Shown here one piece after another: positions 2,437 to 47,746 of a stretch of DNA of 64,000 nucleotides. The position numbers were made by a program, and so were the translations under genes. The notes below the pieces were generated by a model that was given only the letters and a program-made list of their open reading frames with translations, had not been told where the DNA came from and did not search any database. Each line of letters starts with the position of its first letter. Positions within the stretch are counted from its first letter, which is position 1. Origin of the DNA: an uncultured Methanoregulaceae archaeon (GTDB lineage Archaea > Halobacteriota > Methanomicrobia > Methanomicrobiales > Methanospirillaceae); assembly GCA_963701095.1 (NCBI GenBank), contig OY969564.1, forward strand, positions 608,001 through 672,000, written 5' to 3'.

Positions 2437-2962
2437 GATGAGATTTTCCTTATTTTTCCGTATTTTAGTGATCTTTTGGGCAGAGGATCAAATCTAAAAT
2501 TGATATTTAGCCCGGGATTACCTCGGGTAATTCAGTTTTTGAGGACGATCGATAATAATATAGGAAAATAATCTGAGGCCGGGCACATATATGTGTTGGG
2601 ATTTAGTTGTTTTAGAAGGAATATATAATAAAAATAATTAACGAAATGCTTAACCATATCATAATCCTTCCTTAACGAACTCTTAGTGGAAACCCCAGAT
2701 AAATACATATAGTGTTAGTTCAGCGTTGTGAGGTGATTATTAGAGGGAAGAGACACAATTTGCCTCGTTTATCCGGCCGGGTTACCACCGGTTTTTAAAA
2801 AACAGGAGGACACTTATCTCTTCCGGATAATTGATCATCAAAACAAAATTTGGATTATAAAAGGTAACATTTTCTGATTACCTTTCCGACAATATAAACA
2901 AAATTTTAACTACTTTCCTGAGAAAAGATATTTGAAGAGTTAATTTTTCAGGATTGTGATTC

Positions 2963-3916
2963 ATGAAAGCAATGCTTACCCCCACGAGATTAGCGCTCAT
3001 CGGAATGATCTGCTGCCTCTTGTTCGTATCGGCACTCTTTGCCGGTTGCACGCAAAGCACAACGACTACCCCGACAACTGCCACGCCGACCGAGATACCG
3101 GCAACCCCGGTACCCACAACAGTAGAAGTAGCACCTACCGCTGCCCCGACCACTGTCGCACCTACAGCGACTCCGGCCCCTTCATTCACTCCATCCGCAA
3201 ATAACCTCGTTGTGTATACAGCTGCCTCCCTGACAGGAGCCTCCAAAACCATAGGATCTTCCTTCACGAAAGCCTACCCAAGTACAACGGTGTCATTCGA
3301 TCTTGACGGAACTCAGGCACTCAAGACTCAAGTCGAGAACGGAGCCTATGCTGATGTTTTCATCTCTGCAAGTAACAGTTATACGAACACCCTGAAAAGT
3401 GAGGGCTATTTTGTCGACGGCACCGTACAGCCCCTGGCGACAAACTACATTATTGTCATTCTTCCTCCCGCTAACACAGCAAACATCCAGTCCCTTGCCG
3501 ATCTTGCAAAGCCCGGTGTGAAGATTGCGATAGAGCAAAAGGCGGTTCCCGCTGGCACGGCAACATTAGCAGTCATCGGAAACCTTGCCAACGATACCTT
3601 GAGTCAGAGCTGGGCTAATGCAACGATGAGTAACGTCGTAACCCAAGAGACTTCCGAGCCTGCCGTTGCCGCTAAAGTAGCTCTTGGCGAAGTCGATGCA
3701 GGATTCGTATACCAGTCCACGGCGACGGCAGCACCGAGCGGCACATATACGACGCTCACCATCCCCCAGAAGGACAACTATCTCCAGACATACACTATAG
3801 GCATTCTCAAGGGAAGTCAAAACAAGGCAGCGGCAGCAGAATTCGAGCAGTATATGCTCTCATCTGCTGGCCAGCAGATACTGGCGCAGTACGGTTTTTC
3901 CGCCCCGCCAAAGTAA
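2963..3916 (+). CDS. modA: Molybdate/tungstate ABC transporter substrate-binding lipoprotein
   Basis: Lipobox FAGC, P/T-rich linker, TAASL, ADVFISA, VPAG and GEVDAGFVY motifs. Confidence 0.9.
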   Translation: MKAMLTPTRLALIGMICCLLFVSALFAGCTQSTTTTPTTATPTEIPATPVPTTVEVAPTAAPTTVAPTATPAPSFTPSANNLVVYTAASLTGASKTIGSSFTKAYPSTTVSFDLDGTQALKTQVENGAYADVFISASNSYTNTLKSEGYFVDGTVQPLATNYIIVILPPANTANIQSLADLAKPGVKIAIEQKAVPAGTATLAVIGNLANDTLSQSWANATMSNVVTQETSEPAVAAKVALGEVDAGFVYQSTATAAPSGTYTTLTIPQKDNYLQTYTIGILKGSQNKAAAAEFEQYMLSSAGQQILAQYGFSAPPK

Positions 3917-33188: not shown

Positions 33189-35083
33189 ATGGGTAAAAGC
33201 GCAGATGACGGAAAAGGGTCCGGCTATTATACACCGGACCCATCATACCGTGTGCACAGCTGGATGGGTGATTATACCTGGACCTACAATGAATTTGTCA
33301 AGGATCCGGAAAAATTCTGGGATCATATCGCCCAGAAGCTTCACTGGTTTTCTCCCTATGACAAGGTCAGTGAATGGCAGTACCCGTATGCGAAATGGTT
33401 CGTGAACGGTAAGACCAACATCACCTATAACTGTCTCGACCGGCATGTACTCGGAGACCGGCGTAATAAGGTGGCACTGATCTGGAAAGGTGAGTTTCCC
33501 GAGGAAGAACGGGTCTTCACGTACCGCCAGCTGTACCGTGAGGTACAGCGGTTCGCAAACGGTCTCAAAAAACTCGGTGTCACGAAGGGCGACCGGGTCT
33601 GCATCTATATGCCGGTCATCCCCGAACAGATCATCGCCATGCTCGCTTGTACCAGGATAGGCGCGATACATTCGGTGGTTTTCGGGGGATACGGTGCTGC
33701 AGCCCTCAACCAGCGGATCGTAGGTGCAGGCGCAAAAATCGTTATAACCGCAGACATGGCGATTCGCCGGGGCAAAGCCATCCAGCTCAAAAACGTAATT
33801 GAAGAAGCTGTGATCAACGCTCCTACCGTTGAAACTCTCATTATTCTGCGCCGGGAACAGCGAACACCGGTTGAACTCCACAGCGAATTGGAAGTTGATT
33901 TCTATGAACTGATGGCTGACGTGGACTCCGACTGCCCGGCAGAAGTTATGGACTCCGAAGATCCGCTGTTCATTCTCTACACAAGCGGTACCACAGGCGC
34001 TCCCAAAGGCATTGTCCATACCTGTGGAGGCTATATGGTCGGAGCGTTCTATACAACCAAGTATATCTTCGATATCAAAGAGCACGATGTTTACTGGTGT
34101 ACGGCAGACCCCGGCTGGATCACCGGGCATACATACGTCGTCTACGGTCCGCTCTCCGTCGGTGCTACTATTCTTATTGCCGAAAATACCCCCGATTACC
34201 CGGACCGGGCACCTGGTGGAAAATCGTCGAGGAATATGGGGTTAATATTCTCTATACCGCACCTACCGCAATCCGGATGTTCATGAAACTGGGGCGAGAA
34301 TGGCCGGATAAATACAACCTCAGCAGCCTGCGGGTTCTGGGATCGGTCGGTGAACCGCTCAATCCTGAAGCTTTCGAATGGTTCTACCACGTGATAGGAA
34401 AGGACCGGTGCCCCATTGTCGATACCTGGTGGCAGACGGAGACAGGGATGCATATGGTGACAACCGTACTGGGAGAACCGATGCGGCCGGGTTACGTGGG
34501 TAAATCAATTCCCGGTGTTGTAGCCGATGTCGTCGATAAAGACGGCAAAAGTGTCGGTCCCGGGGAAAGCGGGTTCCTTGTGATCCGGCAGCCGTGGCCT
34601 GCGATGATGCGGACAATCTATAACAACGATGAACGATATCGCAAATACTGGGAAACCCTTCCCGGCTGCTACGTTGTTGGTGACCTCGCGATAAAAGGAG
34701 ATGACGGCTATATTATGGTGATCGGAAGATCCGACGACCTCATCATCGTCTCCGGCCACAACATCGGCACTGCAGAAGTGGAGAGTTCGCTTGTTTCCCA
34801 TAAGGCAGTCGCAGAAGCTGCAGTTATAGGAAAACCCGATCCGGTTAAGGGAAACACCATCAAAGCCTTTGTTACGCTCCGTGTCGGCCATACCCCAAGC
34901 GACAAACTCAAAAACGAACTTATCTATCACGTGCGAATCACGCTTGGCCCTATTGCCATGCCCTCGGAGATCGAGTTCACGGAATCGCTGCCTAAAACCC
35001 GTAGCGGTAAAATTGTCCGGCGTATCTTAAAAGCAAAAGAGATGGGCATGGATCCAGGCGACATCTCCACACTCGATGAATGA
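33189..35083 (+). CDS. acs: AMP-forming acetyl-CoA synthetase (one probable sequencing frameshift near 34206)
   Basis: [40 protein letters not shown] and PKTRSGKI. Confidence 0.93.
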
Positions 35084-37891: not shown

Positions 37892-38003
37892 AACACGGTA
37901 CTCTTGGAGCAACCTTGCCAAATAACTGATCGATCCGTGCAGATCGCCAATTGGGCATAAACGGATAGGGTAATTTCCTGTAACGTCACAATAGTACCCG
38001 GCT

Positions 38004-38891
38004 ATGAAAGTCCTTCTTGCCGAGTATGCTACGTTCCGTGACCCTGTCCTTGCTTCTGAAGGAAAGGCGATGCTTGATGTCCTGCACCAGAGTTTTACCC
38101 GGTGCGGTTATGAAGTAATTCTTCCCGGTCCCGGGGATTTTCTTGAAGAGATACAACGGCTTTCGCTTACCTGTGAGATGGGCCTTGTAATTGCCCCGGA
38201 TTGCCTGCTTTCGAAATGTACGTTCCCGGTCGAACAGCACTCCCATAACCTTGGCTGCGGCAGCATGAATGCTGCACTCTGCGCTAACAAGGTCACGACC
38301 GGCCGGATCCTCAAAACCCATGGAATTCCAGTCCCGGCAGACGCGCCTTCAGGGAAACACGTCGTTAAACCCATTGCCGGTTGCGGTGCTCAGGGGGTCC
38401 GGCTAACCACCGATGCCCCCCGAAAGGATGAGTTTGCCCAGGAATATATCGAGGGTGAGCACTACTCGGTAAGCATCGTAATAAGCCGGGTCATCGGCGA
38501 AGCCTGCCTGTACTTTTCCGGCAATCCACCACTTATCCTCGCTGTCAACCGGCAGTTTGTAGCCCTCAATGCAGACGGCACGTTCACTTATTCAGGAGGT
38601 GAAACGCCCGTCCATCCCCAGCGGGAACAGGAGATCACTGAAACCGCAGTAAAAGCCGCTGCGATTCTTGGCTGCCAGGGTTACTGCGGCGTCGATGTAG
38701 TGGTCGGAGACCGTGTCTATGTTGTGGACGTAAACCCGAGGATCACTACAAGTCTTGTCGGTATTGCTGCCTGCATGAACGAAGAGATCGCTGCACTGCT
38801 GGTCGGCGCCTCACAGGGAAACATCCCGGACAAAGTGACCTATCGGAGCAGGGTGCGTTTCGACCGGAGCGGGACGGTCACCCCGTTATGA
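38004..38891 (+). CDS. mfnD: ATP-grasp ligase, tyramine--glutamate ligase of methanofuran biosynthesis
   Basis: EGKAML, VIAPD, VKP..GCG, QEYIEG, GYCGVD and DVNPRITTS. Coupled to mfnF. Confidence 0.8.
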   Translation: MKVLLAEYATFRDPVLASEGKAMLDVLHQSFTRCGYEVILPGPGDFLEEIQRLSLTCEMGLVIAPDCLLSKCTFPVEQHSHNLGCGSMNAALCANKVTTGRILKTHGIPVPADAPSGKHVVKPIAGCGAQGVRLTTDAPRKDEFAQEYIEGEHYSVSIVISRVIGEACLYFSGNPPLILAVNRQFVALNADGTFTYSGGETPVHPQREQEITETAVKAAAILGCQGYCGVDVVVGDRVYVVDVNPRITTSLVGIAACMNEEIAALLVGASQGNIPDKVTYRSRVRFDRSGTVTPL

Positions 38892-39823
38892 TCGGTATTG
38901 ACGTCGGCGGGGCAAACCTCAAGGTCGCTGACGATAATGGGATCCACATTCACTATTGCCCTCTCTGGTCCGGGGCACCAATTGCCGGGATCCTTTGCCA
39001 GTACTCCAAGGAGAGGAATACCGGGGCCGCTGTCGTCATGAGCGGTGAACTTGCCGATTGTTTTGAGAACAAGACCCAAGGCATCGCATTCATTGTCAAT
39101 GCAGTCCGGGAGGTTTTTCCAGCAGCCCGGTTCTACGGCACCGACGCCACATTCCATGATCGTCCGGTACCGGAGCTTGCAGCAGCAAACTGGCTCGCTT
39201 CGGCCGATTTTCTGCGTGAAAAATACCCGGATGCCTTGCTTCTCGACATCGGCAGTACGACCGCCGACTTTATCCCGCTCTCCCGTTTTTCTTCCCTTAA
39301 AGGCCTTTCAGACCTCGCACGGCTTCAAAAAGGATACCTTGTGTACACCGGCATGCTCCGGACACCGGTAGCTACCCTTCTTTCTTCCGTAGACCTTGAC
39401 GGGATACCAACCCCGGTCAGCACCGAATATTTTGCTGCGAGTGGCGATGCTCATCTCGTGCTTGGCCATATCAGGGAAAACGATTACAGCTGCGATACCC
39501 CGGACCACAAAGAAAAGACCCGTGGAGCCAGCCTGCGCCGGCTTGCCCGGGTAGTCTGCGCAGACCTCGAAGAGATAGGTGAAAATGGTGCCCGGCAGAT
39601 AGCAGAAGCATTCTGGGAACGGCAGCAGGCGCTGGTTTGTGATGCGGTGCACAGGGTTACGAAAGAGACAGAGACTACCACGGTAGTCGTGGCCGGTTTA
39701 GGTTCGGCACTCTTTGCCCGGGTATTGCGAGGTATTGATCTTTCACAGGAGATAGGACCAGCCGCAGATGCGCTCCCAGCATATGCCGTCAGGGAGGTGG
39801 CACTACGGAAGCATGGAAACTGA
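38888..39823 (+). CDS. mfnF: Hydantoinase A-fold methanofuran biosynthesis protein MfnF
   Basis: MIGIDVGGANLK, VMSGELADCF, AAANW, DIGSTTAD, YTGMLRT and RLARVVCAD. Confidence 0.85.
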   Translation: MIGIDVGGANLKVADDNGIHIHYCPLWSGAPIAGILCQYSKERNTGAAVVMSGELADCFENKTQGIAFIVNAVREVFPAARFYGTDATFHDRPVPELAAANWLASADFLREKYPDALLLDIGSTTADFIPLSRFSSLKGLSDLARLQKGYLVYTGMLRTPVATLLSSVDLDGIPTPVSTEYFAASGDAHLVLGHIRENDYSCDTPDHKEKTRGASLRRLARVVCADLEEIGENGARQIAEAFWERQQALVCDAVHRVTKETETTTVVVAGLGSALFARVLRGIDLSQEIGPAADALPAYAVREVALRKHGN

Positions 39824-39879
39824 GCCTTGGTCTCCTTGCCGGTTCAATCGGCATTACAGCTGTTCTTTGGAGTTTGCAT

Positions 39880-40497
39880 CTACCGTTCTTTTTCCTTTTT
39901 CTCTGCATCCCGATCTTCCCCTTCCTGGGGAAGCGTCAGGTCAAACGCTGTCCGGTGTGTGGATGGGAAACCACAGGCAGCGAGAACTTCTGCCCCGCGG
40001 ACGGGACTGCCCTTCTCGGCCCGGGAGGAGACGGAAGACAATGAGATTACCGAAAGCGGCATCCGGATACCGAAAAGATCCGTGGACGGTACAATGTGAA
40101 CCTGCTTCTGTACATACTGCCGGCAGCTGGTCCGGTCAACAATAATATCCACCGCGTCAAGCCATGCCGCAGTCCGGTTGACCGGCATCATGGTTGCAAG
40201 CGTCAGGCAGAGGTCAACAACCGGTGATCCGATCCGGGTGCCCGGGTAGAACGGTTCATCGGCGTTGACAATACGGCCGCATGAATGGCAGGAAAATCGT
40301 TTGACAGACACGGTGAGGGAACGTTCGTGATCATTTTCACGGACAACAGCAAACACTTTTTTCCGGGTATCGTATCCAGAAACCGCCCCACCACAGACCG
40401 GACAGGAGGCAAGCTCGCTGAAGGTTACCCTGTCAACAGCCAAAAGCCCAGCCTGGACGATCATTGCAAGCATAGGTGGGATGCGGGGACTTTTCAT
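39880..40497 (-). CDS. Hypothetical Zn-ribbon + HTH-like protein
   Basis: CPVCGG...KRFSCHSCG followed by a helical segment (PVNRTAAWL..VDRTSC). Confidence 0.6.
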   Translation of the reverse strand: MKSPRIPPMLAMIVQAGLLAVDRVTFSELASCPVCGGAVSGYDTRKKVFAVVRENDHERSLTVSVKRFSCHSCGRIVNADEPFYPGTRIGSPVVDLCLTLATMMPVNRTAAWLDAVDIIVDRTSCRQYVQKQVHIVPSTDLFGIRMPLSVISLSSVSSRAEKGSPVRGAEVLAACGFPSTHRTAFDLTLPQEGEDRDAEKKEKER

Positions 40498-40635
40498 CAG
40501 GACGCCTTCTTATGACAGGTTAAAATTCAGCACGCAAAAACTGCCCTGAAACCCACCATTAATCATCATATTTTGTAGCGTTTTGATCACCCTTAAATAC
40601 TCCGGTAACAGACCTTTTTTGTTCGAGGTTAGAAC

Positions 40636-42492
40636 ATGGACTTTAAATATGTACCAAGCACCTGTCCCTACTGTGGCAACGGGTGTGGTGTCAACCTTGT
40701 CGTAAAAGACGGCAAAGTTGTCGGGCTCTCCCCGTGGCACCGCAACCCGGTCAACGAGGGAAAGGTCTGTATCCGCGGGAACAAGCCATATGAGTTTGTC
40801 AACAGCCCGGACCGGATTATGGCTCCGCTCGTGAAAAAGGGCGACAAGTTCGAAGAAGTCAGCTGGGAAGACGCCTACAAGGAGATCGCCGCTGCTTTTA
40901 AGGCAGTCAAGGGCGACGCCATCGGTGTTGTCGCTTCTGCAAGGAACAGCAACGAAGACTCTTTTGTCTTAAAACACTTCGCGTCGGACGTGCTCAAGAC
41001 GGCAAACATCGATTACTGCGGCCGCCGGTGTAATGCTGACGCCGTTAAAGGTCTTACCGATGCATTCGGGAATGGTGCAACCACGAATTCGCTTGCCGAT
41101 CTTGAACAGGCAAAGGCAATCCTCATCGTGGGAGCAAACCCGCTCGAAGAGAACCCGCTTGCAGGCCGAAGGGTTATCATTGCCAAACAAAACGGTGCAA
41201 AGATAATCGTCGCCGACTCCCGTAACACGGCAACGGCAAAGCTTGCCGACATCCATATTACCTGCAACCCGGGCACGGGTGTGGCGCTGGTCAACGGTAT
41301 TATCACTGCCATCATCAAGGCAGGTAAAGAGAACAAGGATTACATTGCAAAGCACACCAAGGACTTTGAAAAGGCAAAGGCGGCAGCAGCAGCCTGCACA
41401 CCGGAAGCGGTCGCAAAGGCAGCTGGTATCAGCGCTGATGTTGTCACCCAGGTGGCCGAGATCTTTGCCTCAACACAGCCAGCGGCAGTAGTTACCTCAG
41501 CAGGCGCAGGTGCAGGAGACCTTATCCGGGCCCTTGCAAACCTCCAGATGGTCACCGGTAACGTCGGCAAAGCCGGTGCAGGTGTCAATCTCCTCCGCGG
41601 CAAAAGCAATGCCCAGGGAGCAGCCGATGTCGGCGCAGTTCCCGGAGAGGGCGGTCTCACCGTTCCGGCCATGATCGACGCGGCAGCAGCCGGTAAAATC
41701 AAGGCACTCTATGTAGTCGGTGAAAATATTGCATCCGCAGGTCCTCATGTAGCTGACGCCCTGGCAAAGCTTGACTTCCTGGTTGTCCAGGACCTCTTCA
41801 TGACTGCGACTGCCGCAAAGGCAAACGTTGTCCTGCCCTCAGCCTCTTTTGCAGAGCGCGACGGGACCGTCACCAATGCCGAGCGCCGTGTCCAGCGGGT
41901 CAGGAAAGCCATCGAACCTATCGGCTCCTCCAAACCCGACTGGCAGATTATAAGCGAGATTGCAAAGGCAATGGGTCACGAGAAGGACTTTGCATTCAAG
42001 GACGCAGAAGCTATCTTTAACGAGATTGCAAAGACTGTCCCTGCCTATGCAGGTATCACCTATGCAAAACTCGAAAAACCAGAAGCTGTCCAGTGGCCTG
42101 CCGCCGGGGGCGTGTTTGGCACTCAAATCCTGTACACGGACAAGTTTGGTACAAAGGACGGAAAGGCGGCATTCGCGGCCGTCGAGTACAAGGCCGTCGA
42201 AGCAGCTGGCGGGGAGTTCCCGTTTGCGGCAGCTGCCGTCTGGCCCATGGGCACACTTTCTGCCCACACTTCATCTATCATACGCGAGTGGCCGGTGCCA
42301 AGAGTCGAGATTAACAAAGACGATGCAAAAGCACTGGGTATCCTTGACGGATCATTTGTCAAGGTCACCGGAAAAGCCGGGTCAATTACCCTTACCGCTG
42401 ATGTGACCAAGGATATCAAGAAAGGTGTCGTCGGTTTGCCCGCGAACGTTGGCGCTGCTGTCAAGCTTGAGAAATCCACAGGAGGGAACTAA
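40636..42492 (+). CDS. FdhA-like molybdopterin-oxidoreductase-fold protein, degenerate at active-site and cofactor motifs (ElpA-like)
   Basis: N-terminal CPYCGNGC...C [4Fe-4S] motif and an overall FdhA scaffold. NIDYCGRRCN replaces NIDHCARLCH. Domain IV is truncated. 618 aa. Confidence 0.8.
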   Translation: MDFKYVPSTCPYCGNGCGVNLVVKDGKVVGLSPWHRNPVNEGKVCIRGNKPYEFVNSPDRIMAPLVKKGDKFEEVSWEDAYKEIAAAFKAVKGDAIGVVASARNSNEDSFVLKHFASDVLKTANIDYCGRRCNADAVKGLTDAFGNGATTNSLADLEQAKAILIVGANPLEENPLAGRRVIIAKQNGAKIIVADSRNTATAKLADIHITCNPGTGVALVNGIITAIIKAGKENKDYIAKHTKDFEKAKAAAAACTPEAVAKAAGISADVVTQVAEIFASTQPAAVVTSAGAGAGDLIRALANLQMVTGNVGKAGAGVNLLRGKSNAQGAADVGAVPGEGGLTVPAMIDAAAAGKIKALYVVGENIASAGPHVADALAKLDFLVVQDLFMTATAAKANVVLPSASFAERDGTVTNAERRVQRVRKAIEPIGSSKPDWQIISEIAKAMGHEKDFAFKDAEAIFNEIAKTVPAYAGITYAKLEKPEAVQWPAAGGVFGTQILYTDKFGTKDGKAAFAAVEYKAVEAAGGEFPFAAAAVWPMGTLSAHTSSIIREWPVPRVEINKDDAKALGILDGSFVKVTGKAGSITLTADVTKDIKKGVVGLPANVGAAVKLEKSTGGN

Positions 42493-42494
42493 CC

Positions 42495-43748
42495 ATGACA
42501 AAGAAAGGCGATATGCTCTACGCATGGACCAACGACGCTGAGATCCAGAAGAAAGCCGAACTTGGCGGTGCGGTCACGTCCCTCTGGAAGCACGCGCTTG
42601 AATCCAAGACCATCGACGGCGTCCTCGTCATTTCCAAAGGTAAGGATCTCTACGATGCAAAACCCACGCTCGTAACCGATCCGGCACAGCTTGCAAACAC
42701 GGCAGGCTCACTCCACTGCGGTACGCTCCTCCTGCCCAAACTGATCAAGAAGTACTTTGACGGTGCGGCAAACACCAGAATTGGCGTTACCGTAAAAGGC
42801 TGCGATGCAATGGCGTTCTACGAACTTGCCAAGCGCAAGCAGATCAATCTCGACAATATCTTTATGATCGGTGTCAACTGCGGAGGATCCGTCAGCCCGG
42901 TACTCGCCCGCAAGATGATCGCTGACAAGTACGGTGTTGACCCGGACACGGTCCACAAGGAAGAGATCGACAAGGGCCAGTTTATCATCGAATACGAAGG
43001 CGGCCACAAGGGAATAACCGTCGACGAACTCGAAGAACACGGTTACGGACGCCGGTCCAACTGCCGCCGCTGCAAGATGAAAGTGCCCCGGCAGGCAGAC
43101 CTTGCCTGCGGTAACTGGGGTGTTATCGGGCCCCGTGCCGGCAAAGCGACATTTGTTGAAGTATGCAGCGAGAAAGGTGCAAACCTTCTGGACAGCGCAG
43201 TCAAGAAAGGTATCCTTGCGACAGAAGCAGCAAACCCCAAGGGTCTTGAGATCCGCGGTAAAGTCGAAGGTGCCATGCTCAAGCTCGGCGAGAAGTGGCG
43301 AACCAAAGACTTCACTGGTCTTGGCGAAGGAAAAGAACGCCTCAAGAAGATCATGACCGAAACCTCACGGTGCATCAAGTGCTACTCGTGCATCTCCGCC
43401 TGCCCGATCTGTTACTGTGTTGACTGCACGACCAAGAACCCGGTCTACGTAAAACCCGGCGAAGTCCCGCCAAATTTCATGTTCCACCTTATCCGGTTTG
43501 CCCATATTGCAGACTCCTGCGTGAACTGCGGCCAGTGCCAGGAACTCTGTCCAGCAGAGATTCCGAATGCGCTTTTCATGCACGCCCAGCAGGTCGAACT
43601 CGAAAAGATGTTTGGCCATGTTCCGGGTATCAACATGGAACTTCCGTTGATGGCGTTTGTTGAAGAACGCGAAGAACGCGCCCGGCTTTCAAACACCGGA
43701 AGCGACATGATCTACCAGAACGTGTTCAACCCGGTTCCCAAGAAATAA
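42495..43748 (+). CDS. fdhB: F420-interacting formate dehydrogenase beta subunit (FrhB/FdhB family)
   Basis: GGAVT, GSLHCG, KGCD, IGVNCGG, RRSNCRRC, ADLACGNWG, and two ferredoxin motifs (CIKCYSCISACP; CVNCGQCQELCP). Confidence 0.92.
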   Translation: MTKKGDMLYAWTNDAEIQKKAELGGAVTSLWKHALESKTIDGVLVISKGKDLYDAKPTLVTDPAQLANTAGSLHCGTLLLPKLIKKYFDGAANTRIGVTVKGCDAMAFYELAKRKQINLDNIFMIGVNCGGSVSPVLARKMIADKYGVDPDTVHKEEIDKGQFIIEYEGGHKGITVDELEEHGYGRRSNCRRCKMKVPRQADLACGNWGVIGPRAGKATFVEVCSEKGANLLDSAVKKGILATEAANPKGLEIRGKVEGAMLKLGEKWRTKDFTGLGEGKERLKKIMTETSRCIKCYSCISACPICYCVDCTTKNPVYVKPGEVPPNFMFHLIRFAHIADSCVNCGQCQELCPAEIPNALFMHAQQVELEKMFGHVPGINMELPLMAFVEEREERARLSNTGSDMIYQNVFNPVPKK

Positions 43749-43770
43749 TCTCTTTTTTTTTAAAACCATT

Positions 43771-44823
43771 TCAACAACATTCTGTGAAACAGCGTTTAGC
43801 GGGCACGGTCGTTGGTAATACCGTGCAGTTTCCGGAACATCCGTACCGCGCCCGGGTCGTAGCAGAGGGTTCCGGCAGGGGATCGGTGAACCGCCTGCCA
43901 TCTACGGACTCAAGGATGGCATTAATAGCCGCAGGGTTGCCCGGCCCGTACCCTCCTTCAAGGACAAAGGCGGGTGAAAGACCCGTTGCATCCAGAAGAA
44001 GGCTTGTCAGGGTTCCGTAATCTTCCGGAACAAGACCCATGACACTGAGGGGATCATCGAAAAGCATGTCCTGGCCGGCCGAGACCAGGATAAGATCCGG
44101 ATGCACCCGTTCCAGCACCGGGAAAAAAGATCCGTGAAAACATGGGCAACATCTCCGATCGTGCTTCCCGGCATAAGCGGGGCGTTAACCGTGTAGCCGG
44201 CACCGGGGCCGGTGCCAATTTCCACTGCCGCTCCGGAGTAGGGGAACAATCCCTCTGCATGGACCGAACAGTACACTACCCGGTCGCTTTTTACAAAAAT
44301 TTCCTGGGTACCGTTCCCATGGTGCAGGTCCCAGTCAATAATAGCGACTTTGTCGACGGAATCCAGAGCCCGTGCAGCCGCAACAGCAACATTATTGATA
44401 ATGCAAAACCCCATTGCCCACCCGGGAAGGGCATGATGGCCCGGTGGCCGGACAAAGGCAAAACAGCTCTCCCCGTCCCGTGCACGATCCGCTGCCCTGC
44501 ATGCGGCTCCTGCTGCGTAGGTTGCAACGTCGTAGGACCATGGCGTGATGTACGTATCAGCATCGATAAACCACTGTATTGCCGCAAGGTCCGGGTCTTT
44601 GGTAGTGCCGGTAACGGGAAACGGGCTCAGACTTCGCAGCCATGAGAGGTAGCCGGCCTTGTGGACCCGGCCCAGATCCTCTGCCGTTGCCGCCACAGGA
44701 TCGAGCACCGGAATACCAGACCGGCAAATGCGCAGCAATCGTATGAAGACGTTGAGCAGATTCAGGATGGCCCGGGCAGTCGTGGCGATCATAGACCGGC
44801 CCGGTAATAACGGAGCATTTCAT
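43771..44823 (-). CDS. Histone deacetylase/AcuC-family amidohydrolase (two probable sequencing frameshifts near 44721 and 44124)
   Basis: HPE..RL, RPPGHHA, GFC..NN, DWDLHHGNGTQ, SAGQD..DDPL and LEGGY. Confidence 0.88.
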
Positions 44824-44960
44824 ACTGCACCATCGGCCCCGATTCGGACACGGAGATGATATGTTTGTGAGCTGATGAATATTACGACACACACCGTAAT
44901 CAGGACAATCTCAAAAGGAATAGAGAGAGATAAAACGTTAAAAAAGAAAACAAACCCTTT

Positions 44961-45287
44961 CTATTCTTTTGACTTCCGTATCATCTGGACTTTCTGAAGG
45001 GTAATCTGGCCATGCTCGATGTATTTTTCGATCTCCGGGAGAACCGCCATAATTTTCTCTTCTTCATCAACAATCTCAAGGGTAACCGGCAGATCGAGGG
45101 AGAGCCCGATCACGTCGACCGTATGGACAACGCTCTCGTGGCCAAACCCTGCCATCCCCCGATAAACGGTACATCCCGGAAACCCCTTTTCCTTGAAATA
45201 GTTCACCAGGAATTTGTATGCGGGCCGGTCTTCAATCTTGGCCGATTCAGCGATATAAATTTTGAGTAATATCCCGTCCATTATCAT
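44961..45287 (-). CDS. DUF190 PII-like protein (CrcB-associated)
   Basis: LKIYIAE, GCTVYRGMAGFG and LSLDLPV.LEIVD. Confidence 0.88.
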   Translation of the reverse strand: MIMDGILLKIYIAESAKIEDRPAYKFLVNYFKEKGFPGCTVYRGMAGFGHESVVHTVDVIGLSLDLPVTLEIVDEEEKIMAVLPEIEKYIEHGQITLQKVQMIRKSKE

Positions 45288-45305
45288 ACGATAACCTCCG
45301 TTTTT

Positions 45306-45662
45306 TTAGATTGCCCACCAGGTGCAAATAAGATATCCAGCTGCCACAGCAGCAAGGCCGCCTCCGACACTAATCGCACTATATGTCGCAAGAGTGCGAT
45401 AATCATGATCCTCCAACATACGAAACGTCTCATACGAAAATGTTGAAAACGTCGTAAAACCACCAAGACCGCCGGTCCCGATAAGATAATACAGGTCGCC
45501 TTTGACCAGTGAAAATACCAGCAGGGAAAATGCGAAACTTCCTATAATGTTGACAAGAAACGTCCCGGTAGGAATGCCCCGGATTGGCTCGATGCGTGAG
45601 AAGACAAAGCGGAGTACCGATCCTGCCGCCCCGCCCACGCCGACAAGGAGAACCGGATCCAT
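45306..45662 (-). CDS. crcB: Fluoride channel Fluc/CrcB (copy 2)
   Basis: GGAAGSVLRF, GTFLVNIIGS and GGLGGFTTFSTF. Confidence 0.92.
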   Translation of the reverse strand: MDPVLLVGVGGAAGSVLRFVFSRIEPIRGIPTGTFLVNIIGSFAFSLLVFSLVKGDLYYLIGTGGLGGFTTFSTFSYETFRMLEDHDYRTLATYSAISVGGGLAAVAAGYLICTWWAI

Positions 45663-46064
45663 TCAAAATCTCCGGTAAAGGATAACAAGTCTCCCCAGCC
45701 ATATGGCGCCAAAACCCAGTAGCAGTGTGACCACGAGATTTAAAACGCCGATGAGCGGACCTGCTGCAAAGGACTGGACTTCAAGAGCAGAGAAGGTAGT
45801 GTACGATCCGATAATACCGACCGCACAGAACTGCCGGGTAGTTTGCGAAAACCTTCCCAGGTACATCGATTCGTACATGAATATTCCAAGGAAAAAGCAG
45901 CCGGTGGTGTTGACAAACAAGGTTCCGGGAAGGGTGAAGACGATGCCGGTATCGACAAGGTACCGTAGCACAGCACCGATAAAACCTCCGATGGCCACCG
46001 CGGCAAACGCAACGCACGACTCAACAGAAGGTAAAAACGCCGTATGAAGGCTTCCGGACGACAA
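45663..46064 (-). CDS. crcB: Fluoride channel Fluc/CrcB (copy 1)
   Basis: GGFIGAVLRY, GTLFVN..GC and GIIGSYTTFS. Confidence 0.92.
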   Translation of the reverse strand: MSSGSLHTAFLPSVESCVAFAAVAIGGFIGAVLRYLVDTGIVFTLPGTLFVNTTGCFFLGIFMYESMYLGRFSQTTRQFCAVGIIGSYTTFSALEVQSFAAGPLIGVLNLVVTLLLGFGAIWLGRLVILYRRF

Positions 46065-46096
46065 CGAATTAATTCCCCCAAATCACCGTTCGTTTT

Positions 46097-46156
46097 TTGT
46101 AGAAGTCATCAGTCACGCGAATCGGTGGCGGTTGGAGGCGGACTTCATCGCCGTTA
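46097..46156 (-). ncRNA. Fluoride riboswitch (crcB motif)
   Basis: Minus strand reads GGCGATGAAGTCCGCC-TCC-AACCGCC...CTGATGACTTCTAC, matching the GGCGATGrrGTyCGCC...AACCGC...CTGATGACyyCTAC consensus. The GAAGTC/GACTTC pseudoknot pairing is intact. About 35 nt upstream of crcB. Confidence 0.93.
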
Positions 46157-46298
46157 TCATAGATTGGTTTTCAGTGTTTTTGAATCTGGCGAAAAAAGCT
46201 TCAGTAATATGGCTTACATCCACCCGGATCAGCCGATCTGCTGCCACCAAACTGATCTCTTTTGCCTCTTTCCGGTATTCTTTTATAATGCGTGGCAT
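46113..46298 (-). pseudogene. Possible N-terminal remnant of a TetR-family regulator
   Basis: MPRIIKEYRKEAKE resembles the N-terminus of methanogen TetR regulators. Similarity is lost after about 15-20 codons. Confidence 0.35.
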
Positions 46299-46480
46299 GA
46301 TTTTTTGTAGTCCAAGGCGTAGAGTAAAAATGGTAGAGCGAGTAATATTTATGACATTGGGAAGCGCGTTCCGAAAGGTTATGATACAATTATACCTGTC
46401 AACACACAAACATTGACATATATTCCGGCATCTTTTCGAACGCTGAAAAAAAATCCAAACGAGAACAAAAAAGGAAAACC

Positions 46481-47746
46481 ATGAGATCCAGTACTATCGT
46501 TATTTGCATCCTCCTCTCTGCCCTGATGGCCATGGCAGTTATGCCGGTCTTCGCCGATGATATCCCAACGGTGAACGTTGGTAGTTTTGAGGTAAATCCT
46601 TCAGTGCTCTTGCCCGGCAGCTTTGGCACGATAACGATTACGGTAAACAATACTGCCCAGAGTGCCTCTCTCACCCAGGAATCCGGGGAGCTCCAGTCAA
46701 CTACCTATACCCAGGTAAGAACCAACGATATCAGCGTCAATATCCAGAATGTTCATCTTGAAGGAGACGGTATCACGGTTTTAACCGATGATTTCAACCG
46801 AATTGGCGATTTAGGCCCGGGCAAGTCCATTCCTCTTACCTTCTCCATACAGGCCCCGGACCAACCAGGCATATATTATCCCGAGATCTGGATCGATACC
46901 CAGGGCGGGCAGAGCACGCGGTTCCCGATCCCGGTCAATGTTGATACTGCAGTCGGCATCCAGAAACAGGCCATCCTTATCATGAACAGTGATATTAACA
47001 GCACTGTCAACCCCGGAGATGAGATCCCGGTAACGCTGACAATCAGTAACGCAGGCCAGCTTCTCGCAGACGATGTTACCCTGAAAATATCAAACGTGAG
47101 TACAGACATTGCTCCCGAGAATACCGATACCTACAATATCGGCCTTCTCAACCCGGCCGACCAGAAAACGATCGATGTTGTCCTTCTTTCAGATAAGCTG
47201 ACACCCCCCGGCCTTATCCAGATACCGGTAACGATAAAGTACGCAACAATTGACGGAACCCAGATAACGCAGGCTTCAAGTATCGATCTTACGCTCGAGG
47301 GAAAGGCGGAACTCGGCATCGTTTCCATAGATACAAACCCGTCACCGCTTGTCGCAGCAACCCCGTTTGATCTTACGATCCGTATAGAAAACACCGGCAC
47401 CGGTGATGCAAAACAGGTCGCGGCGACCGTGGATCTTCCTGCTGAGGGGACGAAAAAGGCATTTATCGGGAAGATCGCCCCGGGTGATGACGCACCCGCA
47501 CTATTCCAGATCGAAAACATGAAAGGCGGTACGTACCCGTATAACCTCACCGTAAATTACACCGATGATTTGGGTTTTCATTCCTATACCCAGCCAATGA
47601 GTCTCCGGGTGCCACCTTCTGATTCTGTTGGAGGCGTTATCTTCGGGCTTATCGTCCTTGTGATCCTCGGGTTCCTCGGGTACCGCTACTGGTACCTGCC
47701 CCATAAAAAAGGCGACGGGACATTCCCATGGGTAAAAAAGAACTAA
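46481..47746 (+). CDS. COG1361 S-layer-domain (Ig-like repeat) protein with signal peptide and C-terminal TM
   Basis: Signal peptide, repeated IGDLGPG/IGLLNP/IGKIAPG and I.N.G...A..V motifs, C-terminal TM. Confidence 0.8.
   Translation: MRSSTIVICILLSALMAMAVMPVFADDIPTVNVGSFEVNPSVLLPGSFGTITITVNNTAQSASLTQESGELQSTTYTQVRTNDISVNIQNVHLEGDGITVLTDDFNRIGDLGPGKSIPLTFSIQAPDQPGIYYPEIWIDTQGGQSTRFPIPVNVDTAVGIQKQAILIMNSDINSTVNPGDEIPVTLTISNAGQLLADDVTLKISNVSTDIAPENTDTYNIGLLNPADQKTIDVVLLSDKLTPPGLIQIPVTIKYATIDGTQITQASSIDLTLEGKAELGIVSIDTNPSPLVAATPFDLTIRIENTGTGDAKQVAATVDLPAEGTKKAFIGKIAPGDDAPALFQIENMKGGTYPYNLTVNYTDDLGFHSYTQPMSLRVPPSDSVGGVIFGLIVLVILGFLGYRYWYLPHKKGDGTFPWVKKN

Follow-up and report, generated by a model that had tools for sequence, protein, structure and literature searches.

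A gene pair annotated as formate dehydrogenase in a Methanoregula genome probably encodes an Elp-type electron-input module

The fdhA-like and fdhB genes described here, from the genome of a peat-bog methanogen of the genus Methanoregula, probably encode an Elp-type module by which F420H2 delivers electrons to heterodisulfide reductase (Hdr). The pair lies in a stretch of 64,000 nucleotides, the whole of which we call the window, and the initial placement of the host among the Methanomicrobiales was correct. The fdhA-like gene (P0001, 40636..42492, + strand) encodes a 618-aa protein with the four-domain Mo/W-bisPGD fold, which is catalytically degenerate and which we propose to be a non-catalytic, ElpA-like subunit. 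It ends with a TAA stop codon (42490-42492, + strand) and is separated by only 2 nt, 'CC', from the ATG of fdhB (P0002, 42495..43748, + strand), both as read directly in the sequence. The 417-aa product of fdhB carries the N and C domains of FrhB/FdhB followed by a 2x[4Fe-4S] ferredoxin domain, and is proposed to be the F420H2-oxidising, FAD-containing subunit. Direct reading also revealed a ribosome-binding-like motif for fdhB, GGAGG (42481..42485, + strand), within the end of the fdhA-like gene. Both open reading frames and the spacer are therefore as first described, an intact FdhA-like frame 2 bp ahead of a complete fdhB. The fdhA-like frame is intact at 13/13 pseudo-type loci, and fdhB lies directly downstream in all of them, being split in one (L024).

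The initial annotation had also claimed that the partner is an intact F420-binding FdhB. P0002 matched PF04422 (1.8e-23), PF04432 (8.7e-39) and Fer4 families, and it aligned with the Hdr-bound FdhB of M. hungatei (7bkb_E) over 412 residues with E=1.8e-217 and with ElpB (8rvu_E) with E=1.9e-99. Moreover, 18 Cys positions were identical in P0002 and the seven other FdhB/ElpB-like sequences compared, including FdhB encoded beside canonical FdhA; the G068 sequence has three Cys beyond the common 18. These results bear the claim out.

The FdhA-like protein has lost catalytic motifs but retains a conserved core

We aligned P0001 with E. coli FdhH (Ec numbering), M. formicica FdhA and PDB 9t1s_L/7bkb_D, and found all seven of the differences from canonical FdhA that had been listed. 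The ligand codons of the FS0 [4Fe-4S] cluster, C10, C13, C17 and C45, are present together with R47 (40663..40770, + strand), an Arg at the bridge position Lys44 of FdhH, and each of these five residues occurs in 100/100 Methanoregula-type sequences. The active-site remnant YCGRRCN (residues 127-133; 41014..41034, + strand) keeps Cys132 at the Mo-ligand position Sec/Cys140(Ec), while His141(Ec) is replaced by Asn133; C132 and N133 are each found in 99 of the 100 sequences. His181(Ec) is also changed to Asn, and three conserved histidines are lost from P0001. The loop SAGAGAG (residues 288-294; 41497..41517, + strand) stands in place of SMGITQHTTG, the GITQH loop having lost 5 aa. RGKSNAQG (residues 321-328; 41596..41619, + strand) differs from RGQNNVQG by Q335K, N336S and V338A but keeps Arg333(Ec), and both R321 and K323 are present in 100/100 sequences.

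Three deletions accompany these substitutions in the second half of the protein. After GAVP336, ~28-29 aa are gone (Ec ~348-376, the YPGY region), leaving the cap-deletion junction P336/G337 (41641..41646, + strand), and this deletion was found in 13/13 aligned pseudo-type loci and 3/3 ElpA-like loci. At the domain IV remnant FPFAAAAVWP (residues 528-537; 42217..42246, + strand), a 5-aa deletion takes out the conserved Ec R581. At the C-terminal junction N604/V605 (42445..42450, + strand), 22 aa are missing (Ec 656-677, with N662, D670 and P676), and Ec K679 is not conserved. The domain IV anchors Ec R581, H/Q655, N662 and K679 are thus all lost, of which R581, N662 and K679 are MGD contacts in the FdhH structure, in segments of domain IV that hold the two pterin dinucleotides. 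An assembly artefact as the source of the deletions was ruled out, because 13 independent loci and ~100 proteins in databases have them in common; the window's assembly does carry one-base frameshifts elsewhere.

Across 71 canonical FdhA-type representatives, 77 columns are conserved at >=90%; 58 of these are unchanged in P0001 and the other 19 are altered or deleted, indicating that the seven differences are not due to chance. Most of the 19 altered columns belong to what we take to be catalytic, pterin-contact or cap motifs. All 71 representatives have His after Cys/Sec, but only because the set was chosen that way. Against the FdhA profile TIGR01591, P0001 scored 599.4 bits, under the cut-off of 666.25. 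On the other hand, N168, D194, E363, N364, Q385, D386 and D435 of domains II/III, which we take to be nucleotide or pterin contacts in FdhH, are kept and near-invariant in the clade. The initial description of a protein stripped of molybdopterin ligands therefore holds for the lost motifs but is overstated, since P0001 still has the Mo-ligand-position Cys, the active-site Arg and many residues of domains II/III.

The AF2 model of P0001 (pLDDT 92.7) contains all four domains, predicting that the fold is kept, and its pLDDT falls to 74 across residues 531-540 in the domain IV remnant. A Foldseek search with this model returned 1fdi (TMq 0.93) and 7bkb_D (TMt 0.88).

The fdhA-like gene is maintained by selection

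The dN/dS of the fdhA-like gene was 0.07-0.13 in the closest pairs, compared with a median of 0.087 for canonical FdhA (53 pairs). Domains I-III are constrained as strongly as in true FdhA, whereas selection is relaxed on the remnant of domain IV (dN/dS 0.16-0.30). Each of the derived residues Lys323, Asn133, Asn173 and Arg47 is fixed, being found in 99-100 of 100 relatives; the changes are common to ~100 Methanoregula relatives, and the same deletions recur in other genera and in forms of as little as 53% identity. A canonical-type FdhA is also encoded in 12/16 genus genomes with the pseudo-type gene. The gene is thus maintained under purifying selection rather than decayed, as had been suggested, and values of dN/dS near 1 were not seen.

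P0001 belongs with the ElpA-like proteins of Methanomicrobiales

P0001 grouped with ~490-aa ElpA-like proteins of Methanomicrobiales with SH-aLRT support of 98 in a 51-row tree and 99 in a 21-row tree. A tree with the ElpA-like proteins outside the group received a p-AU of 0.015 (21-row LG+G4 AU test), for a group that was named only after the tree had been seen. The label 'ElpA-like' for the ~490-aa rows denotes their length and an adjoining ElpB-type gene rather than the accessions of Nomura 2025. The cap deletion (~29 aa), His141Asn and His181Asn are common to P0001 and these proteins. The 5-aa deletion of the SAGAGAG loop is shared by the Methanoregula forms and the ~490-aa proteins but absent from three distant forms of 616-631 aa, which have Ser at the Cys position (P0114, P0115) and at the Asp202 position (P0113-P0115). 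A search of genome contigs with P0113 returned mostly canonical FdhA loci, and also the record CP121470 (L088). In the ~490-aa forms, domain IV is wholly absent, and the ligand-position Cys is missing in some.

Judged from the tree and the shared deletions, P0001 is a longer member of the ElpA-like lineage, in which a worn domain IV persists. The earlier suggestion that it might have been derived independently of Elp does not agree with the deletions and the clade that it shares with the class II 'ElpA-like' proteins. The cap and the catalytic His appear to have been lost first and domain IV later.

Genome inventory and expression of the gene pair

In the window's genome, no canonical FdhA was found, the only other PF00384 protein being a 442-aa frame assumed to be of the FwdB/FmdB type. 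Searches of this genome also gave no formate/nitrite transporter and no Hmd, and Mvh was not found, the [NiFe] large subunits being only FrhA and one energy-converting type. hdrCBA-mvhD is present ~690 kb from the fdhA-like/fdhB pair; there is no linkage between the pair and hdr. A one-base shift within a stretch of C residues splits mvhD in this assembly, probably through an assembly error. Taken together, this gene inventory fits the formate-independent role in F420H2-to-Hdr electron transfer that had been proposed. Another genome, G134, has the pseudo-type gene only, yet a formate/nitrite transporter gene is present.

The same gene pair is carried by Ca. Methanoregula pelomyxae (CP121470, L088), whose published transcriptome (Dataset 5) gives 1467 TPM for the 1863-bp fdhA and 2096 TPM for fdhB. 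These are Hdr-like levels (hdrA2/B2/C2, 2776-3895 TPM), while the 2061-bp canonical fdhA, at 57 TPM, lies ~26-fold below the pseudo-type fdhA. In metatranscriptome contigs from four runs of three studies, searched with the region 38000-46500, both genes are covered by pieces that are 90-100% alike, while nothing covers the flanks 39988-40555 and 45384-46235. We did not take these contigs as expression, because they come from relatives and RNA libraries may hold DNA.

Databases label P0001-type proteins formate dehydrogenase or molybdopterin oxidoreductase, and SI Table 1 of Nomura 2025 (PMC12350162) enters the 621-aa orthologue of M. boonei under FdhA, not ElpA-like, so that the initially suspected mis-annotation is indeed present in the sources. 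A passage of PMC10579272 gives M. boonei as having no formate use and no formate transporter, and calls its Hdr donor, or the dependence on formate, 'enigmatic'; a scheme in Treitli 2023 draws FdhAB as the Hdr donor.

Proposed function and alternative explanations

We propose that F420H2 would be made in this organism by the F420-reducing hydrogenase Frh and oxidised by FdhB at its flavin, and that the iron-sulfur clusters of FdhB would relay the electrons to the electron-bifurcating heterodisulfide reductase MvhD-HdrABC. The 618-aa FdhA homologue would not oxidise formate but would act as a structural partner of FdhB, with its own [4Fe-4S] cluster kept. We infer that the Mo/W cofactor has been lost, that the pair binds Hdr physically and that electrons flow in this direction. 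Several points speak against this Elp-type reading. The constraint on domains I-III exceeds what a passive scaffold might need, and the retained Cys132, Arg321 and near-invariant residues of domains II/III may, as far as sequence can tell, point to more than a scaffold. Moreover, the pair is unlinked to hdr, mvhD is split, canonical FdhA is found in 12/16 genomes and G134 has the transporter. Frh could also feed Hdr by another route, as Thauer and colleagues reportedly proposed earlier.

The retained residues and the constraint would suit a neo-functionalised enzyme, in which the FdhA homologue still binds a cofactor (one or two pterin dinucleotides, a nucleotide, or a metal at Cys132) and performs, with FdhB, F420-linked redox chemistry on a non-formate substrate. 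Cys132, Arg321, Lys323, Asn133, Asn173 and Arg47 are fixed in 99-100/100 relatives, FS0 persists, as does the Lys-to-Arg bridge position, the presumed MGD contacts of domains II/III are mostly retained, dN/dS outside domain IV equals that of true FdhA, and a full four-domain fold is predicted (pLDDT 92.7). We nevertheless consider this unlikely: none of the conserved domain IV anchors survives and three conserved histidines have gone, what is left of domain IV is under relaxed constraint (dN/dS 0.16-0.30), sister forms lose still more (Ser at the Cys and Asp202 positions; ~490-aa forms without domain IV), and we found no candidate substrate and no extra gene conserved beside the pair. There is also a bolder extension of the Elp-type reading, which we regard as rather improbable: the module would be the sole electron entry to Hdr in M. 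boonei-type Methanoregula, dominant in acidic peat, and the FdhA relic would be more than a scaffold, its invariant Cys132/Arg321/Lys323 pocket and strongly constrained nucleotide-binding domains accommodating a ligand or providing a regulatory site that tunes the module. If the module were the sole Hdr entry, all electrons for CO2 reduction would run constitutively from a single cytosolic hydrogenase, Frh, through F420H2, rather than as a nickel-starvation back-up.

The retained Cys and Arg could likewise belong to an unusual but functional formate dehydrogenase, which would supply Hdr by oxidising formate that is produced internally or diffuses in, in line with the annotation of the sources (SI Table 1 has the 621-aa M. 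boonei protein under FdhA) and with FdhAB as drawn in Treitli 2023. This is very unlikely, however, given that the His beside Cys/Sec, present in 71/71 canonical representatives (a set chosen so), is Asn, that deletions have removed the cap and the domain IV anchors, that the score falls under the TIGR01591 cut-off and that no formate transporter was found in the genome of the window, nor does M. boonei use formate according to a passage of PMC10579272. Finally, the several deletions, the many conserved residues lost and the absence of canonical fdhAB from the window's genome could be taken for a decaying fdhA relic, heading for loss and carried along by a still-useful fdhB downstream. We rejected this explanation as having next to no chance of being correct: the frame is intact at 13/13 loci with dN/dS of 0.07-0.13, identical deletions reach down to 53% identity and into other genera, canonical fdhA stands alongside in 12/16 genomes, and the orthologue reaches 1467 TPM in Ca. 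M. pelomyxae.

Methanoregula is a major peatland methane producer, and genome papers could not name its Hdr feeder because neither Mvh nor a formate transporter nor growth on formate had been found (as stated in part of PMC10579272). Reading its 'FdhA' as a non-catalytic ElpA-like subunit would give a simple answer, F420H2 made by Frh, and would correct an annotation from which models would predict formate use. P0001 also represents a stage intermediate between a genuine FdhA and the ElpA-like proteins of smaller size, which helps to reconstruct the way such pseudo-enzymes come about. The concept is already published, for Elp and for non-catalytic Molybdop-FdhB-Hdr, so that the gain lies in scope and evolution rather than in principle; the long form had been tabulated as "FdhA".

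Comparison with known systems

The Mo/W-bisPGD fold is kept without a pterin cofactor in NuoG/Nqo3 of complex I and in QrcB. P0001 matches NuoG chains with E~1e-28 and, over residues 4-609, the QrcB model with 148 bits, below the cut-off of 440, but these are distant relatives in unrelated complexes and the likeness is an analogy only.

A closer functional parallel is the non-catalytic 'Molybdop' protein that, as reported in part of a 2025 article (Microbiol Spectr, PMC12054007), ANME-2/3, Methanolobus and Methanosarcina possess together with FdhB and type II HdrA. It has the same proposed role, a structural FdhA homologue with Hdr using F420H2 and not formate. However, its clade is placed there near FdhG/FhcB, as a convergent adaptation within hdrA gene clusters, whereas the branch of P0001 comes off Methanomicrobiales FdhA and its gene has no linkage to hdr. 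In M. hungatei's Fdh-Hdr-Fmd supercomplex (7bkb-7bke), FdhB is nearly the same protein as P0002 and FdhA has the same fold, but that FdhA, with 686 aa, has canonical motifs, while P0001 has neither cap nor catalytic His and has lost its domain IV anchors. A passage of PMC11362671, citing Watanabe 2021, reports that this complex uses both formate and F420H2.

ElpABC of M. marburgensis (8rvu/8rvv/8rvy; Nomura et al. 2025) shares the layout of an FdhA homologue with an FdhB homologue. As described in sections of that paper (PMC12350162), the FdhA homologue has no formate dehydrogenase activity and the F420H2-oxidising FdhB homologue feeds HdrABC. Class I ElpA, in contrast to the 618-aa, four-domain P0001, is truncated (340-398 aa in SI Table 1) and lacks the MopB domain, and the 60 best PDB matches for P0001 do not include it. 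In the Methanothermobacter operon as given there, elpC is an mvhD homologue, whereas mvhD lies with hdrCBA elsewhere in the window's genome; Elp is described as induced by nickel limitation in a host with Mvh and Hmd, neither of which was found in the window's genome. The closest known relatives are the class II ElpA-like proteins, which, as worded in Nomura et al. (Nature), were separated from FdhA 'by phylogeny and sequence length' and which, in the legend of Extended Data Fig. 8a and SI Table 1, have 482-563 aa, each with an ElpB of ~383-425 aa. Compared with these forms of ~490-563 aa, the long forms have 614-631 aa and keep a worn domain IV, and those of Methanoregula keep the ligand-position Cys. 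In both, the fdhB/ElpB gene follows directly, and the class II products are 72-74% identical to P0002 with the same Cys pattern.

Sequence state of the FdhA homologue

The 618-aa FdhA homologue in the window (P0001, pseudo-type) was aligned with E. coli FdhH (K-12 record, TGA read as U) and M. formicica FdhA, and HMMER alignments to PDB 9t1s_L and 7bkb_D served as a further check. The motif changes reported in the initial annotation were all recovered. The four cysteines of the N-terminal [4Fe-4S] cluster (FS0) are present; the active-site motif reads YCGRRCN (residues 127-133), the GITQH loop is replaced by SAGAGAG with five residues fewer, RGQNNVQG has become RGKSNAQG, and about 28-29 residues of the YPGY cap are absent after GAVP336. 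TTGR...HYH of domain IV has become AAAAVWP with deletion of a conserved Arg, and 22 residues close to the C-terminus are gone, the N..T and PE(Y/F)K positions among them. The description of the protein as stripped of its ligands held only in part: the adjacent catalytic His is lost (Asn133), but the metal-ligand Cys and the active-site Arg are kept, since the second Cys of YCGRRCN corresponds to selenocysteine 140 of FdhH and the Arg of RGKSNAQG to Arg333.

A conserved-column comparison that relies on no motif list gave the same picture. The canonical set comprised the 71 of 150 proteins (149 representative matches plus M. formicica FdhA) with C/U140, H141, R333 and K679. Among the 77 columns conserved in at least 90% of this set, P0001 retains 58 and alters or deletes 19 (FdhH numbering: K44R, K122H, R125S, H141N, H181N, P203S, T300G, G305, P331L, Q335K, V338A, G353, W370, R581, H655N, N662, D670, P676 and K679). 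For pterin contacts we used a residue list that we take to be that of the 1997 FdhH structure paper; 47 of its 48 residue names match the fetched sequence.

P0001 carries the Pfam domains Molybdop_Fe4S4, Molybdopterin and a partial Molydop_binding (profile positions 25-82 of 110), and its best NCBIfam model, FdhA (TIGR01591), scores 599 bits, below the curated cut-off of 666. Its nearest canonical enzyme is M. formicica FdhA (686 aa, 48% identical), and its closest named relatives are Methanoregula proteins, among them P0022 (621 aa, M. boonei 6A8 according to NCBI; 83%). The AF2 model (pLDDT 92.7, pTM 0.91) superposes on FdhH with a TMq of 0.93, and the predicted fold is complete.

The gene is maintained under purifying selection

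By ORF call, the fdhA-like gene occupies 40636-42492 (+) and ends in TAA (42490-42492); a two-base spacer, CC, precedes the ATG of the 417-aa fdhB (P0002, 42495-43748, +), ahead of which GGAGG is read at 42481-42485 (+). From 120 listed matches, 114 ids were used (P0001 and P0003-P0115), 103 of them 600-640 aa long, with 11 shorter fragments left out. The full-length set contained 100 Methanoregula-type sequences (63-93% identical to P0001) and three more distant ones (53-55%). Across the 100 sequences, conservation reaches 99% or more at 179 of the 618 positions, and the derived residues at the former active site are fixed (R47, N173, R321 and K323 in 100; C132 and N133 in 99). The deletions of the cap, the domain IV Arg segment and the C-terminus are also common to the three distant forms.

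Nei-Gojobori dN/dS was computed between 13 genome loci (L001, L013-L024). The closest pairs (dS 0.5-1.0) gave 0.07-0.13 for the pseudo-type fdhA, rather than a value near 1, and the adjoining fdhB gave 0.025-0.08, while the median for canonical fdhA of the same family was 0.087 (53 pairs). Relaxed constraint is confined to the domain IV remnant (0.16-0.30). The fdhA-like frame is open, with fdhB directly 3', in 13 of 13 loci, fdhB being split in one (L024). Taken together, the low dN/dS, the fixed derived residues, the deletions common to distant forms and the open frames reject a decaying relic, as the initial annotation had expected.

Distribution and origin

The 614-622-aa type was found in 16 of 41 sampled genomes of the genus; the wider sample of the family added three genomes, from two other genera. 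Twelve of the 16 also have a canonical-type match, and four, including the host, have the pseudo-type alone (G000, G005, G134 and G145). In genome G085 (L042, G085:C1:1826000-1842000), the order is ATP-grasp, hydantoinase-A-type, a small divergent Cys-rich gene, pseudo-type fdhA, fdhB, canonical fdhA (690 aa), fdhB and a 278-aa gene; G116 (L043) has a similar tandem, its second fdhB being only a 260-aa frame. The same three left-hand genes stand in the window, all 5' of the fdhA-like gene: the ATP-grasp and hydantoinase-A-family genes at 38004-39823 (+), and at 39880-40497 (-) one for a divergent Cys-rich protein of 205 aa, whose weak match to DUF6431 stays under the cut-off. Similar genes occupy this place in the loci whose flank extends that far. 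The arrangement suggests an ancient tandem duplication, after which the boonei-like branch lost the canonical copy.

Two occurrences were unusual. A contig titled Nitrospirota bacterium MAG (L116, CAVYLT010000095.1, 116.6 kb) carries a match of pseudo-type length (1858 nt, with 51% identity to P0113), most simply read as a mis-binned archaeal contig. A 73%-complete MAG (G131) has two full-length copies on different contigs (72% and 68% identical to P0001), perhaps because the bin is mixed or because the gene was duplicated a second time.

The maximum-likelihood tree had 51 rows: 13 pseudo-type, 17 canonical of the family, three proteins of ~490 aa whose genes each precede an ElpB-type gene, 17 representatives hand-picked from the 149, and E. 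coli FdhH as outgroup. Pseudo-type and ~490-aa proteins formed one clade (SH-aLRT 98), set apart from canonical Methanomicrobiales FdhA (SH-aLRT 95). The grouping reached 99 in a 21-row tree, and an AU test on the group, named after tree inspection, rejected placing the ~490-aa proteins outside it (p 0.015); the grouping does involve long branches. The ~490-aa proteins share the cap deletion, His141Asn, His181Asn and the five-residue loop deletion, and end before domain IV, so that indels, which lie outside the tree data, agree with the tree. They fit the class II 'ElpA-like' proteins of Nomura et al. 2025. The 60 best PDB matches for P0001 did not include ElpA.

FdhB partner, genome inventory and expression

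In P0002, the two FrhB/FdhB domains are accompanied by a ferredoxin domain with two clusters. The protein matches ElpB from the Elp-Hdr structure (1.9e-99) and is 84-86% identical to Methanoregula FdhB beside either pseudo-type or canonical FdhA; 18 cysteine positions are identical in all eight FdhB/ElpB-like sequences compared.

The host genome, a 2.63-Mb single contig of which the window is G000:C1:608001-672000, contains only one further PF00384 protein, a 442-aa frame assumed to be FwdB/FmdB-type, and [NiFe] large subunits of two kinds only, FrhA (TIGR03295, 594 bits) and an energy-converting NuoD-like form. The genes hdrC-hdrB-hdrA-mvhD adjoin mcr, and a third FrhB-type gene sits with glutamate synthase genes. 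Searches of this assembly that read through stops found no formate/nitrite transporter family gene and no Hmd. These absences carry a caveat because completeness is given as 86% and one-base frameshifts occur: outside the window, a single-base shift within a run of C breaks up mvhD (about 1340867-1341261 of G000:C1), and acs (window 33189-35083, +), which encodes an AMP-forming acetyl-CoA synthetase, lies in two overlapping frames. Taken with 86% completeness for a contig that is closed, such splits suggest indel errors at homopolymers in the assembly rather than real pseudogenes. A histone-deacetylase-family gene (PF00850, 2.7e-54) just 3' of fdhB (43771-44792, -) is likewise broken up, its overlapping frames being 115 and 261 aa long, and may be another such frameshift. 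At 44961-46064 (-), a DUF190-like small gene and, after it, two putative crcB-like fluoride-channel genes were read by eye from translations.

CP121470 (L088), which Treitli et al. 2023 (PMC10579272) give as type genome for Ca. Methanoregula pelomyxae, carries a pseudo-type gene of 620/622 aa that reads SCGRRCN and shows the deletions seen in P0001. A 416-aa fdhB begins 2 nt after this gene, and a third fdhA-type frame comes 861 nt later. Dataset 5 of the paper, whose locus tags we paired with these ORFs from the length and order of the genes, gives 1467 TPM for METHP_01620 (fdhA, 1863 bp), 2096 for METHP_01621 (fdhB, 1251 bp) and 57 for METHP_01624 (fdhA, 2061 bp), beside 2776-3895 for hdrA2/B2/C2 and 26788 for frhA. 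The same paper reports Ca. M. pelomyxae and M. boonei as without Mvh and formate transporter, describes M. boonei as unable to use formate, and calls a dependence of heterodisulfide reduction on formate 'enigmatic'.

Proposed role and comparison with known systems

We infer that the pair most likely forms a module in which Frh reduces F420 with H2, FdhB would oxidise the F420H2, and the FdhA relic, probably free of Mo/W cofactor, would hold FdhB and keep FS0; the pair would bind Hdr and pass the electrons to it. Alternatively, P0001 may still bind a ligand or have gained another activity. Outside domain IV the protein is as constrained as working FdhA; Cys132, Arg321 and most contact-type residues of domains II/III, presumably nucleotide or pterin contacts, are kept and near-invariant; and the complete predicted fold gives no sign of an empty pocket. 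This alternative is therefore a live rival, although we consider it unlikely. The pseudo-type gene accompanies loss of formate use as a tendency, not a rule, since a transporter gene persists in G134, which has only the pseudo-type, and is missing from G022, G116 and G149, three genomes that do have a canonical-type match.

Related arrangements are published. The M. hungatei complex is described as using both formate and F420H2 (PMC11362671, citing Watanabe 2021), Elp is a dead FdhA homologue that with FdhB lets Hdr use F420H2 (PMC12350162), and non-catalytic Molybdop-FdhB-type II HdrA clusters follow the same principle (PMC12054007). SI Table 1 of Nomura et al. 2025 (PMC12350162) places the 621-aa M. 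boonei protein under FdhA. Our literature search found no paper with Methanoregula and ElpA together in one main text and, on Methanoregula FdhAB, MvhD or F420H2, only the Pelomyxa paper as relevant. What is new is that proteins of 614-631 aa from Methanoregula and relatives, which annotations and tables list as FdhA, appear from their sequences to belong to the ElpA-like lineage, of which they would represent a less reduced stage, and that in boonei-type genomes the pseudo-type FdhA-FdhB is the only candidate Hdr donor module.
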